A stretch of DNA of 16,957 bases from Pedosphaera sp. (GTDB lineage: Bacteria; Verrucomicrobiota; Verrucomicrobiia; Limisphaerales; SIBH01), in assembly GCA_031414955.1 (NCBI GenBank), contig JANOQV010000058.1:1-16957 (forward strand). Reading direction: 5' to 3'. A program made the translations under genes and the position numbers. The notes below the pieces were generated by a model that worked only from the letters and a program-made list of their open reading frames with translations, was not told the DNA's origin and did not search any database. Shown piece by piece: positions 2,979 to 16,957 of the stretch. The first letter of the stretch is position 1. The number at the start of each line of letters is the position of its first letter.

Positions 2979-3386
2979 CTAACCGCACCGGAACGAAATG
3001 CGCGCGATCGTTTCCTTGCCGAAGCTGTTCTGGAGGCGGTCGATGATTTCCTTGCGGCGGTAGCGCACGATCTCGGAGAGCCAGACGTTGTTGTCCACGG
3101 TCACGAAGAGCGTGCCCTTGTGAATGCCGGTGGGCTGGGCGTGGGCGGCGACTTCGGGGTCGATGAGGTGGTTCCACACGCGGACGATTTCCGCCTCGGC
3201 GCGACGCCGGTCCATGCCGAGGCTTTGCATGACACTGGAGACGAGAAGGCCCGCGCCTTTTTCCCGGCGCTGCCCGGCCTTGACCAGCGGAGTGACATCC
3301 ACGCCGCGCCAGGCGGCGAGGACTTTATCCCGCTGGGAGAGGCGGGGCGCTCCCTTGGCCGGAATGAACTGGGGCGGTCGTCGCAT
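2979..3386 (-). CDS. dciA: DUF721 / DciA-family protein (replicative helicase-operating protein-like)
   Basis: IVRVWNHLIDPEVAAHAQPTGIHKGTLFVTVDNNVWLSEIVRYRRKEIIDRLQ...ISFR matches the DUF721 pattern. The predicted start overlaps the 3' end of the GH42 gene by 62 nt. Confidence 0.8.
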   Translation of the reverse strand: MRRPPQFIPAKGAPRLSQRDKVLAAWRGVDVTPLVKAGQRREKGAGLLVSSVMQSLGMDRRRAEAEIVRVWNHLIDPEVAAHAQPTGIHKGTLFVTVDNNVWLSEIVRYRRKEIIDRLQNSFGKETIARISFRCG

Positions 3387-5457
3387 TTTCTGCGGCAGCT
3401 TGGCGATGCTCGGGTTGTTCGTCCAGCACGAGCACGCCGTGGGGCGGCATGTCGTAGCTGCCGGTGAAGGTGTTGCCGGAGAGGAAGTCGTGCATGGGTT
3501 TGTAGAAGTGCAGGCGCACGGGGGAACTCTGGTGGTTGAGCAGGAAGAAGATGCGCTGGCCGTCTTTCTCGCGCAGGCTGACCTCGATGGTGTCCGGCAC
3601 CTTGAGCAGCGGATGCAGGCCGCACAGATTGCGCAACCAGGTCACGAGGTCGTGGTAGAAGGACTGGTCGCTCATGGTGCCGAGGTAAACGGCGCGACCC
3701 TGGCCATACTGGTTCAGGGTCATGGCCGGTTTGCCCGCGTAGAAGTCCTTCGAGTAAACACCGATGACCTGGCAGCCCTTCGGCTCAATGATGTCACACC
3801 ACAGTTTCCCCGGATGGAGATGCGTGGCCGGAAACGCGCCGCGAAAGGTGAGGTGGTTCTCCTCGCCCGGCGGCAAGGGATCGAACTCGCGCACCTCCAG
3901 GCCGAAGACATCGGTCAGGTCGTGCGGGTAGCCGCTGTCCGGCGCGATGTGGTGTTCGTCCACCAGTCCGGTGTTGAAGGTGCTGACGAGGGTGCCGCCG
4001 TTCTGCACGTAGAGTTTCAACAAATCGGCCTCGCCGCCGGCGAGCAAACTGAGCGAGGGGGCGAAGACGATCTTGTAGCGCGACAAGTCCTCGGTGGGCC
4101 GGGCGAAATCGACCGGGATGTTTTTGTCGTGCAGCGCGGTGTAGAAAAGCTGGATGTGCTCGCGGTAACGGAAGTGCTGGTTGGGCTGCTTGGTCAGGCG
4201 CAGGCTCCAGTCGTTGTCGTGGCTGTAGAGGATGCAGACGTCGGCCATCACCCGGGTGTTCTTGAGCACGGGCGCGAGGCGTTTGATCTCCTGGCCGATT
4301 TGTTTGATCTCCTTGTAGGCCCGGGTCTCGGGCGAACCGTCGTGGCCGAGTACGCCGCCGTAAAACTTCTCCGAGCCGATGCGCGGCTGGCGCCAGAGGA
4401 AGTAAAGCACGCCGCACGCGCCGCGCGAAATCAGTTGATGGGTGAAGAGCCGCACCACACCCGGACGGACCAGCGAGTTCACGTCCTGCCAGTTCACGTT
4501 CCCGGCCTTTTGCTCGATGACCCAGAAGCCGCAGTCGCCGTCCGGCGTCTTCACGCCGTGCTTCTTGAGCGAGCGCATCATGTCGATCTCGCAGGCCAGC
4601 TCGGCGGACTTGCTCTTGATGGTGGCGTTGCTGTCCAGCGAGACGAAGTCCAGCGCTTCGGCCATGTCGAAGTGATCGAAGCTGCGCCAGAGCGCGCGCA
4701 GATTGTTCGTGACCGGGAGGCCCGGCGTGAGCGTGTGCAGCAACTCGGCCTGCATCCGCACATAGGCCACCAAGGTGTCGCTGGAGAAACGCATCCAGTC
4801 CACGACCAGGGCCGGATTGTGGACGGTGGGCGTGTGCTGGGGCATCGGCACATCTTCAAATTTGGTGACGCGCTGGGACCAAAAGCTCAACCCGAGCAGG
4901 TCGTTCAGCCGATCCACCGTCTCGTATTTGGCCGCCAGCCAGGCGTGCCAGTCGCGGCGCGTCTCCTCGTTGAAGGAGGTTTCGGTGTCGTGTCCGCCCA
5001 GGCCGTTGTCAATCTGCCAGGCGATCAGCGCGGGATGATGGCCGAGAGCCCCGACCAGGGCGCGAATGATCTTCTGCGAATAGGCCCAATACACATCGCT
5101 GTTGGCGCAATAGGCCCGGCGCGTGCCTTCGTGTTTGATCTGGCCGTGGGCGTCGATGGGCAGAATCTCCGGGTGTTTCTTCAGGAGCCAGACCGGTGGC
5201 GCGGCCGTGGGCGTGCCGAGCACGACCTTGATGCCGACATCGTGGAAGAGGTCCATCGCCCGACGCATCAAGGAGAAGTTGAACTGGCCTTCCTCCGGCT
5301 CATAAAGACCCCAGGCGAATTCCCCCATGCGCACGACGTTCACGCCGGCTTCGAGCATGAGCTGGATGTCCACGAGCCAGCGGGCCTCCGGTTCCTCCGC
5401 CGTGCCCGCATAAGGAAAGACCCAATGTTCAGGATAATAATCGACGCCGAAATACAT
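3325..5457 (-). CDS. Glycoside hydrolase family 42 (beta-galactosidase-like) protein with an atypical active site
   Basis: YFGVDYYPEHW, VRMGEFAW, LGTPTAAPPVW, RRAYC and FWVIEQKAGNVNW motifs plus trimerisation and C-terminal domains. RBS-like GGAGG lies upstream on the minus strand. The acid/base motif reads WQIDNG rather than WxxxNE. Confidence 0.92.
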   Translation of the reverse strand: MYFGVDYYPEHWVFPYAGTAEEPEARWLVDIQLMLEAGVNVVRMGEFAWGLYEPEEGQFNFSLMRRAMDLFHDVGIKVVLGTPTAAPPVWLLKKHPEILPIDAHGQIKHEGTRRAYCANSDVYWAYSQKIIRALVGALGHHPALIAWQIDNGLGGHDTETSFNEETRRDWHAWLAAKYETVDRLNDLLGLSFWSQRVTKFEDVPMPQHTPTVHNPALVVDWMRFSSDTLVAYVRMQAELLHTLTPGLPVTNNLRALWRSFDHFDMAEALDFVSLDSNATIKSKSAELACEIDMMRSLKKHGVKTPDGDCGFWVIEQKAGNVNWQDVNSLVRPGVVRLFTHQLISRGACGVLYFLWRQPRIGSEKFYGGVLGHDGSPETRAYKEIKQIGQEIKRLAPVLKNTRVMADVCILYSHDNDWSLRLTKQPNQHFRYREHIQLFYTALHDKNIPVDFARPTEDLSRYKIVFAPSLSLLAGGEADLLKLYVQNGGTLVSTFNTGLVDEHHIAPDSGYPHDLTDVFGLEVREFDPLPPGEENHLTFRGAFPATHLHPGKLWCDIIEPKGCQVIGVYSKDFYAGKPAMTLNQYGQGRAVYLGTMSDQSFYHDLVTWLRNLCGLHPLLKVPDTIEVSLREKDGQRIFFLLNHQSSPVRLHFYKPMHDFLSGNTFTGSYDMPPHGVLVLDEQPEHRQAAAENATTAPVHSGQGSAPPLPAG

Positions 5458-5700: not shown

Positions 5701-5873
5701 GGGTGGGATTGAAAGTGGCGGGCACGGAGTGCGCCCGTCCTCGGGCGCAGCAAGCTGGAGCGCAGCGGGGTGCCGAAATTTTCTCAAGTTCTCGCGCGGG
5801 CGGACGTTGCTGCGCCCGGGGACGGGCGCACTCCGGCGGGCCGGCTTCGCGGCCCGCCACTTCCAATCGCACC
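5701..5873 (+). mobile_element. 173-bp MITE-like element carrying an inverted REP pair (copy 1)
   Basis: Terminal IRs GGTGGGATTGAAAGTGGCGGG / CCCGCCACTTCCAATCGCACC. Internal REP pair at 5725-5753 and 5807-5835. Flanks TCGCGGCACG (5691-5700) and TCGCGGCCCG (5874-5883) form a 9/10 direct repeat. Confidence 0.8.
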
Positions 5874-7534: not shown

Positions 7535-7707
7535 GGTGCGATTGAAAGTGGCGGGCCGCGAAGCCAACGAGCCGGAGTGCGCCCGTCCCCGGGCGCAGCA
7601 ACGTCCGTCCGCCCGAAGAGTTTGGAATTTGCCGACACCTTGCTGCGCTCCAGCTTGCTGCGCCCGAGGACGGGCGCACTCCGTGCCCGCCACTTTCAAT
7701 CCCACCC
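7535..7707 (-). mobile_element. 173-bp MITE-like element carrying an inverted REP pair (copy 2, opposite orientation)
   Basis: Reverse complement aligns without gaps to 5701-5873 (~154/173 by manual count). Perfect 10-bp flanking direct repeat AGTTGCGGAC at 7525-7534 and 7708-7717. Confidence 0.85.
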
Positions 7708-7768: not shown

Positions 7769-9187
7769 CTAATTCCAATCCACCCGGCCGCGGGCGAGTT
7801 CCGCTTCCAGTTCCTGCTTGGCCAGGGCGATCTTGGCCCGAATCAGATCACGGTTCTGCTCCTCGGCCGAAGCCAGTTCCTTTTCCAGACCGGTGATGCG
7901 CCGCTCATAGGCCTGAAATTTTACCAGCATCTGGGCTTGCACTTTCTCCAGCCGGGCCTCGATTTCCCCAGCCTGGAGCGCGGCCGACTGGTTCTCGTTG
8001 AGCAGAAGAGCGCGCTGGGCGATGAGTCGCTGCACCGCCGACTGCCCGAGCAACTTCGTCAGGTGCTCGACCAGGCGGGCGCGAATGATCGGGTCATTGC
8101 GCAACGCGATCACCGCCTCCTGCCCGAGCGATTCCGGGAGCAGGGCCAGGGCCATGTTCTGCCGCCGGGCACGAATCAGCGAGATGATCACCACTCCCAG
8201 CGCCACCGCCGACACCGCGCCAACCAGCACCCACGGCACGACCGAGGGTGCGGGTGCTTCGGGTCCGCGCAGCGCGGTCAGTCGCGCGCGGAATTCATCA
8301 AGCGCGGCCTTGCCGCCAGCCGTGACCAATTCGCCAGGGCGCACGATCACGTCGCCCGGACGGTATTGAGCGGCGCTCGTCAGATCGCGCAATTGCTGGT
8401 CACGCCATGTCCGCGTCCACGCGACCTCGGGAAAGCAATTGGGCTGGATGAGGGTGGCGAGGAAGCGCGCCGTCGCCTTCTCCTCCGAGGAAAACGCCTT
8501 GGTCGCTTCCGCGCGCCATTTGCTCAACACCAGGATGTTGCTCCGGGCCATGAGTTTGACCCGCTCCACCTCCAAGTCGGACAGCGGAGTGGCGGCGTCG
8601 CTCGAAATAACCTTGGCCTGGTAGCCCGTCTTGAACTCCGCCGGCTGATCATCCGCGCGAATGAATCGCGACATGGCCAGCACCAGCTTCTCCTGGTGGG
8701 GCGTGATAAAATCCGAGTCGGACGCGCCCACGCTCCAAGCCTGGGCCAAGGGTGTGGTCAGGGGGAAATTCTTAAAGGCGGACTGAAACGAGGCTACGAG
8801 CCGGGCAAAACGCTGGTTCGTAAACGCGGCTTCCTCCACAAATCGCCGGTTGTAAGCCGAGGCCACGCGGACCATGAAATTCTGGCGGTTGGTGGCAAAC
8901 GACTCATGGAGATTTTCGATGGCCCGGGCCACCGCGTTCGTATCCAGACGGTAGATCGCCGGCGTGCGATTTGATTCGCGAAGTTTCAGCGCTTCAGTCT
9001 TTTCGGGATCGATGGCGGTGAATCCAAGTGTCGCCACCACCTCCACCCGGGCCGTCTCGCCGATCTGGTAAACCGGCACGATGGAATCCTGGGCGGCGCC
9101 AACGCCCCGGCCAGCGGCCAGCAGAAGGCCCAGCGAGAGCAGAAGTTTGGCGCAACGATGATTCACGAACGAGGCGCGATGATTCAC
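7769..9187 (-). CDS. Single-pass membrane protein with a 7TM-HD-extracellular-domain-like region and a cytoplasmic coiled coil
   Basis: Signal peptide; YQIGETARVEVVA...IDPEKTE, IQPN and YRPGDVIVRPGELVT recall the 7TMR-HDED domain. Followed by one TM helix (WVLVGAVSAVALGVVIISLI) and a heptad-rich tail. Confidence 0.7.
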   Translation of the reverse strand: MNHRASFVNHRCAKLLLSLGLLLAAGRGVGAAQDSIVPVYQIGETARVEVVATLGFTAIDPEKTEALKLRESNRTPAIYRLDTNAVARAIENLHESFATNRQNFMVRVASAYNRRFVEEAAFTNQRFARLVASFQSAFKNFPLTTPLAQAWSVGASDSDFITPHQEKLVLAMSRFIRADDQPAEFKTGYQAKVISSDAATPLSDLEVERVKLMARSNILVLSKWRAEATKAFSSEEKATARFLATLIQPNCFPEVAWTRTWRDQQLRDLTSAAQYRPGDVIVRPGELVTAGGKAALDEFRARLTALRGPEAPAPSVVPWVLVGAVSAVALGVVIISLIRARRQNMALALLPESLGQEAVIALRNDPIIRARLVEHLTKLLGQSAVQRLIAQRALLLNENQSAALQAGEIEARLEKVQAQMLVKFQAYERRITGLEKELASAEEQNRDLIRAKIALAKQELEAELARGRVDWN

Positions 9188-11916: not shown

Positions 11917-12987
11917 CTAAATCTTCACCTTAAACTGCTCGCCCTTCTTCAACGACAGGGCGAAGCCGGCCATCAACTGGGGAATCTGCTCGAGGTCCTT
12001 GAGGTTCACGACCTCGACGGGTGAGTGCATGTAGCGGTTCGGCAAACTGATCAGGCCCGACGGGATGCCGCCGCGCGTCCAGAAGATCACATCCGTGTCT
12101 GTGCCGCTGCTGTTCGACATCGCTTCATGCTGCAACTTGATCTTCTGCTGCTTGGCGACGGCTTCGAGACGCGCGACGACTTCAGGGTGGTTGCAGCCGC
12201 CGTGCGTGATGGCCGGGCCGTGGCCGAGCTTCACATCGCCGTGGGCGGCCTGGCTCACGGTCGGGTAATCCGTGGCGTGCGTCACATCCACGACGAGCGC
12301 CACGTCGGGTTGGAGCGAGTAGGCAATCTGCCGCGCGCCCAGCAGGCCGACTTCTTCCATGATATTCGAGACCGCGCAGACTTCCGCGTTCAGCTTCTTA
12401 CCGCTCTCCTTGAGCAACCGCAGGGTCTCGATCACGGAGAACGTGCCGATGCGATTGTCGAAAGCGCGTGCAATCACCACGTCGCCGCGCAGCACCTCGA
12501 ATTCATCCACCAGCGTGATGGGGTCGCCGATGCGAACGATCTTCTCCGCCTCCGACCGTGTGCCCACGCCGATGTCGATGAACAGGTCTTCCATCTTTGG
12601 CACCTTGCGCTCGCCCTCCTGCTTGGTGAGATGCGGCGCGACGTTGCCGATGACGCCGCGCACGTCGCCGCCCTGGGTGTGAATGTTCACGCGCTGTCCG
12701 CGCATGATGGCCGGGTCGATGCCGCCGACTTTGCGCACATGGATGAAGCCCTTGTCGGTGATGAAGTTCACGGCCAGGGCGATTTCATCCGCGTGGCCGG
12801 CGAGCATGAGGCGCGGACCGCCGCCCTTGTTCAAGACGGCCACGCAATTGCCATAGGCATCCCAGTAGGTTTCATCCGCGAACTGCTTGGCATAGTCCAG
12901 CCACACGCGCTGCCCGCGCAATTCGTTGCCGGACGGACTCGGCGTGTTCACCAACCGCTTCAGGAAGTCGAGAGATTCAGTTCGCAT
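11917..12987 (-). CDS. M42-family metallo-aminopeptidase (TET/FrvX-like)
   Basis: Metal-binding and catalytic motifs AGHADE, AFDNRIG, MEEVG, VVDVT and YMHSPVE. ATG 12987 (MRTESLDFLKRL) is preferred because the upstream extension crosses a heptamer repeat. Confidence 0.93.
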   Translation of the reverse strand: MRTESLDFLKRLVNTPSPSGNELRGQRVWLDYAKQFADETYWDAYGNCVAVLNKGGGPRLMLAGHADEIALAVNFITDKGFIHVRKVGGIDPAIMRGQRVNIHTQGGDVRGVIGNVAPHLTKQEGERKVPKMEDLFIDIGVGTRSEAEKIVRIGDPITLVDEFEVLRGDVVIARAFDNRIGTFSVIETLRLLKESGKKLNAEVCAVSNIMEEVGLLGARQIAYSLQPDVALVVDVTHATDYPTVSQAAHGDVKLGHGPAITHGGCNHPEVVARLEAVAKQQKIKLQHEAMSNSSGTDTDVIFWTRGGIPSGLISLPNRYMHSPVEVVNLKDLEQIPQLMAGFALSLKKGEQFKVKI

Positions 12988-14672: not shown

Positions 14673-16499
14673 ATGCGCGCCGAGATGCTGCCACTGATGA
14701 AACGCTGGGGGCCGGGGGCCTTGCTCACCGCGCTGGTGCTGCTGGTCTGGGGCCAAAGCATCTCGTTCCAGTTCGTCTGGGACGACAAGTTCTTCATCAA
14801 GGATCTCCAGAGCATCCGTTCTCTCCGCCAGGTGCCGGAGATGTTTTACTCGCTCGCCGCGCAATCGAGCCAACCGGAAGCCTTCACGCTCTTCCGCCCA
14901 CTGCGCACGCTGCACTACGCGATCCTTTACGCCCTCGGCGGGGACACGGCGCAGCCCTGGCTGTTTCACCTGGCAAACCTCGTCTGGCACGCTGCCGCCA
15001 CCCTGCTCTTCCATCAGGTTCTGTTGCTGATTCTCGGGCGGAAGATCGGCGAGAAGCAGGATTCCATCCGCTGGTTTGCCTGGCTCGGAGCGGCGGCCTT
15101 CGCCGTGCATCCGGTGGTCTCGGAAGTCGTGTGCTGGGCCAAGAGCCTGGACGACTTGATGGCGACGGCCTTCGTCCTCGCCAGTTGCCTGGCCTTGTTG
15201 CGCGATCAGCCGGAACCACTCGCGCGACGAAGCTACGGGTGGGCGGTGACCTTCTTCATTCTCGCGCTTTACTCCAAGGAGTCAGCCGTGCCGTTCGCAC
15301 TCTTTTGCCTCCCGCTCCTCGCCTGGCGGATGCGCCGGGGTTGGTGGCCTTCGCTTCAGGCCAGCCTCCCGTTTTTCGTCGCGGCCTTCGGCTTTGTGGT
15401 GCATCGCCATCTGGTCATCGGGCGGACGAGCCAAACCGCGCCCATTTCGGGCGGCTACGTTCAAACCCTCATCGACACCCTGCCGGCCGGGCCGATTTAC
15501 GCACGGCTGCTCGCGGGGATTCCGCCCTTTTGCATCGACTACAGCTACATGGATTCCAACCAGGTGCTCAGCACGCCCTCCGTGATGCTGGGCTACGCCC
15601 TGCTCGCGGGGTTGATCCTCGGCATCCTGCTGGCCTGGCGGGGCGGCCAGAAACTTCTGAGTGCGGGACTGCTGTGGTTCCTGGTCTTCATGCTCCCCTG
15701 CTCCAACTTGATTCCGATGATGCAGTACTGCGCGGAACGCTTTCTGTACCTCCCGCTGCTCGGCTGGATCGCGGCCCTGACCAGTCTGGCCATGCTCATC
15801 CCACGTCGAAACCTGTCCTTGGCGATATGCATGCTCACGCTGGTGATTTGGTCCGGGGTCGCGTGGCAGCGTTCCTGGATTTGGCGCGACCCGCTCACTC
15901 TCTTCGTGCAAAGCCATCTCGAAGGTCCGACCACGCCCCGTGTGCAAAACAACGCCATCTCGGCGGCCTTCGGGCAACCGCACCTGCGCGCGGCCTTTTC
16001 CCGTGGGGCCAGGCCCGGCTACCCTTCGGAAGTCGCGGTCTCGCCAACCATCACCAATCATCCGCCCGATTGGCCCGCCGTCGTAGCGACTCTGGCCCAA
16101 CTGCACCAACTGTTCCCGGACGATATGGCCGTGGTCACAGCTTTGGGGCATAGTCACATCCTGCGCGGTCAGGCGGCGGAAGCGATCCCATTCTTCGAAC
16201 GCGCGACTCTACAGCATCCCGACCAGCTTTCCTTCTGGAGCAGCCTGAGCCGCGCGCAAGTGGCGGCGGGGCGCGACGACCAGGCGGCGGAAACCTGCCA
16301 ACGCGCCCTCGCCCGCGACGCCAGTCATCTCCTGACCTTGGAGTTGCTCGCCACCATCCAGCACCGCCAGGAGAAATACTCCGACGCGCACCAGACTTAC
16401 CTCAAGCTCCACGCCGCCGCGCCGGACAACCGTGAGTTCGCCCAACGCGCAGCAGACTTGGAACGCCAACTGGCTGCGCTGCTCACGCCCGCAAGGTAA
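14673..16499 (+). CDS. TMTC-like multi-pass GT-C glycosyltransferase with C-terminal TPRs (putative protein O-glycosyltransferase)
   Basis: FVWDD, FRPL, HLANLVWH, FAVHPVVSEVVCW, SKESA, AERFLYLP and WRDPLTLF motifs; many TM segments; TPR tail; starts 3 nt after the GT2-MTase stop. Confidence 0.85.
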   Translation: MRAEMLPLMKRWGPGALLTALVLLVWGQSISFQFVWDDKFFIKDLQSIRSLRQVPEMFYSLAAQSSQPEAFTLFRPLRTLHYAILYALGGDTAQPWLFHLANLVWHAAATLLFHQVLLLILGRKIGEKQDSIRWFAWLGAAAFAVHPVVSEVVCWAKSLDDLMATAFVLASCLALLRDQPEPLARRSYGWAVTFFILALYSKESAVPFALFCLPLLAWRMRRGWWPSLQASLPFFVAAFGFVVHRHLVIGRTSQTAPISGGYVQTLIDTLPAGPIYARLLAGIPPFCIDYSYMDSNQVLSTPSVMLGYALLAGLILGILLAWRGGQKLLSAGLLWFLVFMLPCSNLIPMMQYCAERFLYLPLLGWIAALTSLAMLIPRRNLSLAICMLTLVIWSGVAWQRSWIWRDPLTLFVQSHLEGPTTPRVQNNAISAAFGQPHLRAAFSRGARPGYPSEVAVSPTITNHPPDWPAVVATLAQLHQLFPDDMAVVTALGHSHILRGQAAEAIPFFERATLQHPDQLSFWSSLSRAQVAAGRDDQAAETCQRALARDASHLLTLELLATIQHRQEKYSDAHQTYLKLHAAAPDNREFAQRAADLERQLAALLTPAR

Positions 16500-16556: not shown

Positions 16557-16590
16557 AAAATAAAAAACCCCGGCCCACAAGGGACGGGGT
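16557..16590 (-). terminator. Rho-independent terminator (minus strand)
   Basis: Minus strand ACCCCGTCCC-TTGT-GGGCCGGGGT followed by TTTTTATTTT. Confidence 0.85.
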
Positions 16591-16598
16591 GTGAAAGC

Positions 16599-16875
16599 TC
16601 CAGGCACGCGTTTTTCAACATTGGCGCTCCCACAACACTATTGTCGGCAGCACCACCGCCCAGCCTTAGCCGAAAAGCCCCGGCGACTGCACCACGAGCG
16701 ATGGCCCTGGCAATCTACGCACGGTCTCCACACTGCGTGTCTTGGAGGTCGAGAGCCGACTTGATGCCACCAACCGGATTCGTTCCGAGAAGCGGATGAG
16801 GAAGAAACTGCCCATGAACTTGGCTCACTACTTGAACGCAATCGGACCCCTTCCGGCGCCAGCTCGCTCCCTGGA
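16599..16875 (-). ncRNA. Candidate structured non-coding RNA (~277 nt), family not recognised
   Basis: Ends pair (UCCAGG/CCUGGA), with many nested stems found by eye. A terminator lies directly downstream and a TATGAT -10-like box directly upstream. No convincing CDS overlaps it. Confidence 0.55.
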
Positions 16876-16878
16876 TTG

Positions 16879-16906
16879 ATCATAACCCGTTAAGAGCCGG
16901 TCTGAA
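16879..16906 (-). promoter_or_regulatory. Possible sigma70-type promoter for the candidate ncRNA
   Basis: Minus strand TTCAGA-N16-TATGAT, ending a few nt before the 5' arm of the closing stem. Confidence 0.35.
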
Positions 16907-16935
16907 AAGTCACTGGTGGAGCGCAAGCCCAGCCC

Positions 16936-16957
16936 CGGAGTGCGCCCGTCCTCGGGC
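16936..16957 (+). repeat. GGAG-type REP arm, truncated by the window end
   Basis: CGGAGTGCGCCCGTCCTCGGGC is identical to 5725-5746 but lacks the MITE terminal repeat upstream. Confidence 0.85.

Follow-up and report, generated by a model that had tools for sequence, protein, structure and literature searches.

A probable sigma-28-driven small RNA cassette limited to one genus of the Verrucomicrobiota

Small RNAs (sRNAs) under sigma-28 control are described in the accessible portions of two reports. CJnc170 (FlmR) of Campylobacter jejuni is an unprocessed, non-coding, FliA-dependent stand-alone sRNA of 47 nt that acts on flagellar genes (PMC11187230), and UhpU, MotR, FliX and FlgO of Escherichia coli are sigma-28-controlled, UTR-derived RNAs that tune flagella, with Hfq among the keywords of the report (PMC10578931). 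For WhiG-type promoters of Actinomycetota, the accessible text gives the consensus sequences T(A/C)AA-N16-GCCGATAA (WhiG2) and CTCA-N16-17-GCCGAACT (WhiG1) (bioRxiv 10.64898/2026.01.14.699351; also PMC2602773). The locus described here lies on the minus strand of a 16,957-nt stretch of DNA (the window) that makes up an entire contig (C58) of a Pedosphaera sp. genome of 6.5 Mb and 62% G+C. It resembles CJnc170, as far as that RNA is described in the source, in being a short stand-alone sRNA with a sigma-28-type promoter; it resembles the E. coli RNAs in its putative sigma-28 control, and the WhiG-type promoters of the bioRxiv text in N16-17 spacing, a GCCGA -10 box and putative use of a non-flagellar sigma-28. 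Unlike CJnc170 with its flagellar targets, this sRNA belongs to a genome without a flagellin hit, and Rfam gave no match for it; unlike the UTR-derived E. coli RNAs, it forms a stand-alone cassette in a genome with neither an Hfq nor a flagellin hit. The fourth letter of its -35 box (in the TAAG register) is G rather than the A of the Actinomycetota consensus, and the phylum is different. No description of an sRNA like this in the lineage was found in the literature covered, most subscription journals and motif-discovery supplements being outside its scope, and the locus likely represents a new genus-limited sRNA family of an already known kind, the sigma-28-dependent sRNA.

The conserved element is probably a stand-alone cassette of about 115 bp, composed of a promoter, an RNA of about 75 nt and a terminator, which would yield a sigma-28-driven, genus-limited, trans-acting sRNA. 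The first-pass annotation had proposed an ornate RNA of about 277 nt at this place; what holds of that proposal is a non-coding, free-standing minus-strand RNA that ends at this terminator and is absent from Rfam. The size does not hold: relatives share with the window only positions 16557-16670, homology ends at about 16670, and the proposed RNA has the conserved promoter within it. Homologues were found for the 3' 114 nt and none for the 5' 190 nt. Eight distinct sequences are known, namely the window and copies from genome G006 (found by BLAST), loci L042 and L048 (from a pattern scan of metagenomes) and genomes G001, G004, G007 and G009 (from covariance model R1); loci L047 and L050 are duplicates of the G006 copy. 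None of the seven other copies has the 5' part of the proposed long RNA. The L048 copy is 92% identical over exactly 16557-16670 and no further, and the genes flanking it match counterparts on three other contigs of the window's genome at 85-87% identity; a longer RNA has no room there, because the -35 box starts about 12 nt after the stop codon of a peroxiredoxin-like gene. Contigs of sequencing runs X8 and X20 match 16558-16651 and 16562-16650, respectively, and then diverge in the promoter spacer.

The RNA was found in six of the 12 genomes of the genus, and none was found outside the genus. Covariance model R2, built from the eight sequences, matches seven of 14 family genomes (the six training genomes, plus a weak match in G011 that is not counted as a copy), and with 25 candidates per genome and strict filters it matches three of 151 genomes of the order and two of 151 of the class, all of the same genus. 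BLAST with the 3' 111 nt against 401 genomes of the order (E<=0.05) matched 60 genomes, only the window's own (G000) and G006 being real; the other matches inspected are short chance matches, mostly to coding DNA. Pattern scanning gave one real locus of 11 in the genome collection (a duplicate of L010) and three of seven in metagenomes (L047 again duplicating L010). Viral pattern scans returned 0, 33 and 6 loci, none of them a real copy, the phage collection one 31-nt chance match and the plasmid collection none. A promoter-plus-terminator pattern applied to 14 genomes found no new copy, its matches being no more frequent than those of the control. R1 matches of 18-28 bits were read as ordinary terminators and discarded, except at L114 and L103 (see below), and sequencing runs with a small word share were excluded as evidence of habitat. 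In G011, L097:1501-1616 (35 bits) has a two-hairpin layout like that of the sRNA, without recognisable sigma-28 boxes; it is possibly a diverged copy or an unrelated leader, and is not counted.

The RNA (16633-16559, minus strand) consists of one 12-bp hairpin and an intrinsic terminator. The 5' hairpin (16591-16633) has a single G-A mismatch in its stem, and its 19-nt loop contains a conserved core; the terminator (16557-16589) comprises a hairpin at 16589-16568, with a pair probability of 1.00, and a U-tract; the strong intrinsic terminator first noticed here is present. Because the hairpin begins 6-8 nt past the -10 box in all copies (for L042, automatic detection chose an earlier GAGG, and the 8-nt start comes from separate analyses of the locus), the transcription start is placed at G16633. 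Across copies the RNA measures 71-75 nt, made up of the hairpin with its loop of 16-19 nt, one or two linker bases, the terminator and its U-tract, and it folds in all eight with z-scores of -3.1 to -5.5. In a model-fitted alignment, which leans toward the structure, 95% of cells are paired and six of 21 pairs have double changes, a level reached by none of 500 shuffles; in the first hairpin 92% of cells are paired and three of 12 pairs are doubly changed, and in the terminator three of nine pairs have double changes among homologues. An unfitted MAFFT alignment has double changes in five of 20 pairs. When the comparison is limited to the five closest copies, changes in the first stem are all single-sided (G-U/A-U/G-C), and the two pairs with double changes belong to the terminator. 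In a subtype made up of the G004, G007 and G009 copies the loop sequence is different, a point against a single fixed seed; the homology of these three is supported by the oxidoreductase gene that follows them, as it also follows the G006 copy. A single 199-nt contig of X20, the sole RNA run, spans the promoter and extends beyond the terminator, and may be DNA.

The most likely function, to which slightly less than even confidence is attached, is that of a trans-acting regulatory sRNA that would pair with mRNA through its loop without Hfq. RNA polymerase with non-flagellar sigma-28 (FliA/WhiG family) would bind TAAG-N16-GCCGACAA and start at G16633, and the transcript would form the 5' hairpin, presenting a loop of about 19 nt, and end at the adjoining intrinsic terminator. 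The loop may then pair in trans with one or a few mRNAs, independently of Hfq, so that the sRNA would constitute the post-transcriptional arm of a sigma-28 programme. Among 4840 start regions of the window's own genome, the best duplex energies of candidate mRNA targets equal those of shuffled loops, and common-seed sites near its start codons occur at chance level. The genome has no hit for Hfq and, at 96% completeness, none for CsrA (PF02599). The second likeliest reading, itself unlikely, is that the short RNA is real and binds a protein through its loop as a sponge or decoy: the closed hairpin with an A-rich loop, the difference in loop between the two subtypes, the missing Hfq hit and the lack of any target above background would all suit such a role, but no CsrA hit and no linked partner gene accompany it, and in five of the six copies listed the GGA words are in stems or in the terminator, outside the first loop. 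A CsrA/RsmA sponge was rejected on the lack of PF02599 and on the presence of just 2-4 GGA words per copy, mostly paired.

The putative promoter of the sRNA has two sigma-28/WhiG-type boxes on the minus strand: a -35 box CTAAG (16665-16669), whose distance to the -10 box is unchanged in seven of eight homologues (G004 deviates), and a -10 box GCCGACAA (16641-16648) whose GCCGA is invariant in all eight copies. In the window the promoter reads TAAG-N16-GCCGACAA (16668-16641). The 40 nt upstream of the RNA have the properties of a promoter, in that the two boxes are at a fixed distance, the spacer between them is poorly conserved (just 35% identical among copies) and GCCGA is invariant; GCTAAGGC is also found at equal spacing in relatives X8 and X20, with different spacers. 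The N16 spacing agrees with the WhiG-type sigma-28 consensus as given in the accessible published text; E. coli FliA sites, in the accessible table of PMC4183435, have a spacer one base shorter than that of the cassette, and the accessible part of PMC12282069 gave no sigma-28 spacing. Flagellin-domain loci of the order have the same boxes at N15 in four of 30 cases, at N16 in none and on the reverse strand in none, and one flagellin promoter within the genus is likewise one base shorter. Intergenic motif hits peak at the cassette and flagellin spacings (14 and 17, versus 3-8 at 13 others), and one of them precedes a gene that we take to be PilT-like. When the matrix is built solely on three flagellin promoters, 117 sites in the genome equal or exceed the score of the cassette promoter, and the top motif rank of the cassette promoter is partly circular. 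In the flagellin genes of the genus (L190, L192, L193; G011, G006), promoter and start codon are separated by a long 5' leader that is conserved among them.

The window's genome encodes one protein above the TIGR02479 (FliA/WhiG) cut-off, and a search of this genome for flagellin gave no hit. Its sigma-28 (G000:C173:20544-21458) shares 87-92% identity with the orthologues of four genomes that carry the sRNA, and 54-58% with the flagellar FliA of G006, a genome that has flagellins and two sigma-28 proteins, one 92% identical to that of the window's genome and the other, beside motA-like genes, 56%. The close paralogue is found in ten of the 12 genomes of the genus, and the best match outside the genus is 68% (201 genomes searched). 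Five of the six RNA-bearing genomes have a sigma-28, G009 (94% complete) being without a hit, and five genomes have the sigma paralogue and no clear RNA hit (G002, G003, G005, G008 and G011). A sigma-28-type promoter directly upstream of the RNA and a cognate sigma-28 are both present in the same genome, and the promoter is probably read by the non-flagellar sigma-28 of the genus. It is distinctly unlikely that another sigma factor (sigma-70 with an extended -10, or an ECF sigma) reads it instead: four copies have GACAAT, which is similar to a -10 hexamer, G009 has no sigma-28 hit and the spacing is one base over that of flagellin promoters, but the invariant letters are GCCGA, not AAT, and N16 is the WhiG spacing in the accessible published text.

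If the assignment to sigma-28 is true, the cassette provides a handle on the role of sigma-28 in those members of a little-studied lineage that lack flagella, and exemplifies regulation by an sRNA in a genome without a hit for Hfq or CsrA; its reach is narrow (one genus), and it will concern mainly specialists in bacterial sRNAs and sigma factors. A wider possibility, put forward tentatively, is that the genus has a duplicated, WhiG-like sigma-28 of non-flagellar type in charge of a small regulon of its own, with short hairpin RNAs (this family and the unit at L114 and L103) among its main outputs, free of Hfq and CsrA and relocating as complete promoter-RNA-terminator cassettes (at least seven contexts). 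The unit at L114:1501-1610 (G000:C123:17419-17528, plus strand) and L103:1501-1609 (G002) lies upstream of cobA/hemD in both genomes and combines a promoter of the same type with a short hairpin, U-rich in its loop, and a terminator; it may be a second sRNA or an attenuator. A sigma-54-like sequence, TGGC-N7-TTGC, closely precedes the gene for the non-flagellar sigma-28 at two of five orthologous loci (L123, about 2430-2415 on the minus strand, and L185), and suggests a sigma-54 to sigma-28 cascade.

The sRNA copies have different neighbourhoods: a TPR gene, a peroxiredoxin-like gene, P-II-like/pheS-like genes, an oxidoreductase gene, the convergent gene of L042, and those of X8 and X20. In the window the next gene is convergent, as the first reading had it; it encodes a TPR-repeat membrane protein with C-terminal TPR (14673-16499, plus strand), lies outside the sRNA module, and is missing beside all seven other sRNA copies checked (eight loci, one a duplicate). 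It is very unlikely that the cassette is a cis element, whether an attenuator or leader or a conserved promoter-terminator insulator without RNA function. Four copies (G004, G006, G007 and G009) are upstream of the same Gfo/Idh/MocA-type oxidoreductase gene, and much of the covariation falls in the terminator, but the downstream gene varies among copies and the loop core is kept across five different neighbourhoods. With the next gene convergent in two copies (the window and L042), and the cassette absent at ten other orthologous oxidoreductase loci, including that of the window's own genome, the sRNA is not a leader.

Large ornate RNAs such as OLE, GOLLD, ROOL and raiA, and 6S RNA (RF00013), are like the sRNA in being free-standing non-coding RNAs with their own terminator; unlike them, the conserved unit here has 75 nt, two hairpins and no Rfam match at any threshold beyond seven at E<=10 in the window, all over the terminator and far below threshold. 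A scan with Rfam 15 at the gathering threshold gave 0 matches in the window, so that novelty is not removed, and 0 in nine homologous loci. Hallmarks of tmRNA, RNase P and SRP had not been recognised at first reading; the window has no Rfam, ARAGORN, tRNA or tmRNA match, and tmRNA, RNase P and SRP are each located elsewhere in this genome. The idea of a divergent 6S-like RNA fails, since there is no RF00013 match here, and the best of the genome, full-length at C229:8653-8837 with 36.7 bits (under the cut-off of 46.4), lies elsewhere.

The multi-stem fold that gave the proposed RNA its ornate character is at the level of chance. The 284-nt minus strand folds with a z-score of 0.08 (101 of 200 shuffles fold equally well), its perfect stems of at least 4, 5 and 6 bp number 110, 23 and 4 versus dinucleotide-shuffle means of 113, 28 and 7, and two 5' sub-regions have z-scores of -0.27 and 0.19. 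The words of the listed stems are present in the sequence, but the number of stems is not above chance. Ensemble pair probabilities, obtained for 13 of the 14 listed stems (GCG/CGC was left out), are 0.94 for the closing stem UCCAGG/CCUGGA in the long molecule, 0.58 for GCCG/CGGC, 0.57 for ACAA/UUGU, 0.39 for GUCG/CGAC, 0.37 for UGGCGC/GCGCCA, and 0.43 for CUCCA/UGGAG, the last value representing ordinary pairing because ViennaRNA cannot model pseudoknots; the remaining seven are at 0.24 or below, with AGCC/GGCU and GGCAGUUU/AGAUUGCC at 0.00. GCGCCA and CCUGGA, the 3' arms of proposed long-range stems, form a local stem together within the conserved 75-nt hairpin. With folding at chance level and with homology only in the 3' 114 nt, a large ornate ncRNA class was rejected, and a chance-level 'ornate RNA' gives way to a compact sRNA family absent from Rfam.

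The spacer at 16670-16890, corresponding to the 5' 190 nt of the proposed ornate RNA, is non-conserved and apparently non-coding. These 190 nt have no DNA homologue among 60 other genomes or elsewhere in their own. The best coding frame of the spacer looks intergenic, 35% of 1446 intergenic stretches scoring as high and only 0.1% of 3251 coding stretches as low. ORF 16638-16883, whose coding-type conservation would have spoken against a non-coding RNA, has a strongly non-coding dicodon score of -1.04 per codon versus a gene median of 0.46, and protein searches with it and with a 68-codon plus-strand frame found no relative; on these grounds the ORF is not a gene. One contig of run X7 (depth 3.7) has 16737-16813 unchanged and about 70 extra bases at 16792-16795 (a 4-base overlap), which are either an indel or a small insertion in a close relative.

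The promoter first assigned to the long RNA, a sigma-70-like site TTCAGA-N16-TATGAT (16879-16906, minus strand), is present and scores 9/12, against a shuffle mean of 0.1 sites, but the conserved promoter is a different one and this site is strain-specific, its -35 coming from a repeat end and its -10 from the flank. The hexamer TTCAGA sits in a repeat end with 85 occurrences across the genome, and a match of at least 5/6 to TATAAT at 16-18 nt outward is found at one of these 85 ends, which is this site; by a rough estimate, about one such match among 85 ends is expected by chance. Hybrid promoters that take their -35 from an insertion element are documented in the accessible part of PMC9330008, and the site could be a working promoter of this type. 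If it fires, a 320-nt read-through would form the closing stem (pair probability 0.91 in that transcript) and lose the short conserved hairpin (0.00). That a multi-junction RNA of about 277-320 nt from this promoter is the functional unit is barely credible: the score of the site, the closing stem that displaces the short hairpin, the precedent of hybrid promoters and the unchanged stretch in X7 are in its favour, but folding is at chance level, the 5' part is in none of the seven other copies, the -35 derives from the repeat, and X7 has its extra bases within the unchanged stretch. The best explanation is that a repeat insertion locally added the upstream 190 nt and the sigma-70-like site to the compact cassette.

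The repeat concerned is MITE/REP-like and about 178 nt long; its left end (16894-16957), preceded by TAA at 16891-16893, is cut by the contig end and has 27 matches within its own genome. A contig joined across the repeat at 16894 was sought and not identified. The family, which we take to resemble IS5-family MITEs, is palindromic and abundant, with 87 terminal motifs of several variants, 18 whole elements of 121-178 nt and 106 core arms in the genome; it has inverted termini, most of its flanks fit a TNA target, and it is found no more than 120 nt from an end on 36 of 313 contigs. Core arms also occur elsewhere in the window, at 5725-5836 and 7572-7683. Between 3124 and 9187 of the window, long ORFs overlap on opposite strands (783 versus 710 aa; 465 versus 472 aa), and a further overlap of this kind is near 12000 (329 versus 405 aa). 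Plus-strand frames of these ORFs, the only frames scanned, gave no Pfam match, and among the overlapping ORFs the dicodon caller favoured the minus-strand frames 3325-5457, 7769-9187 and 11917-12951.
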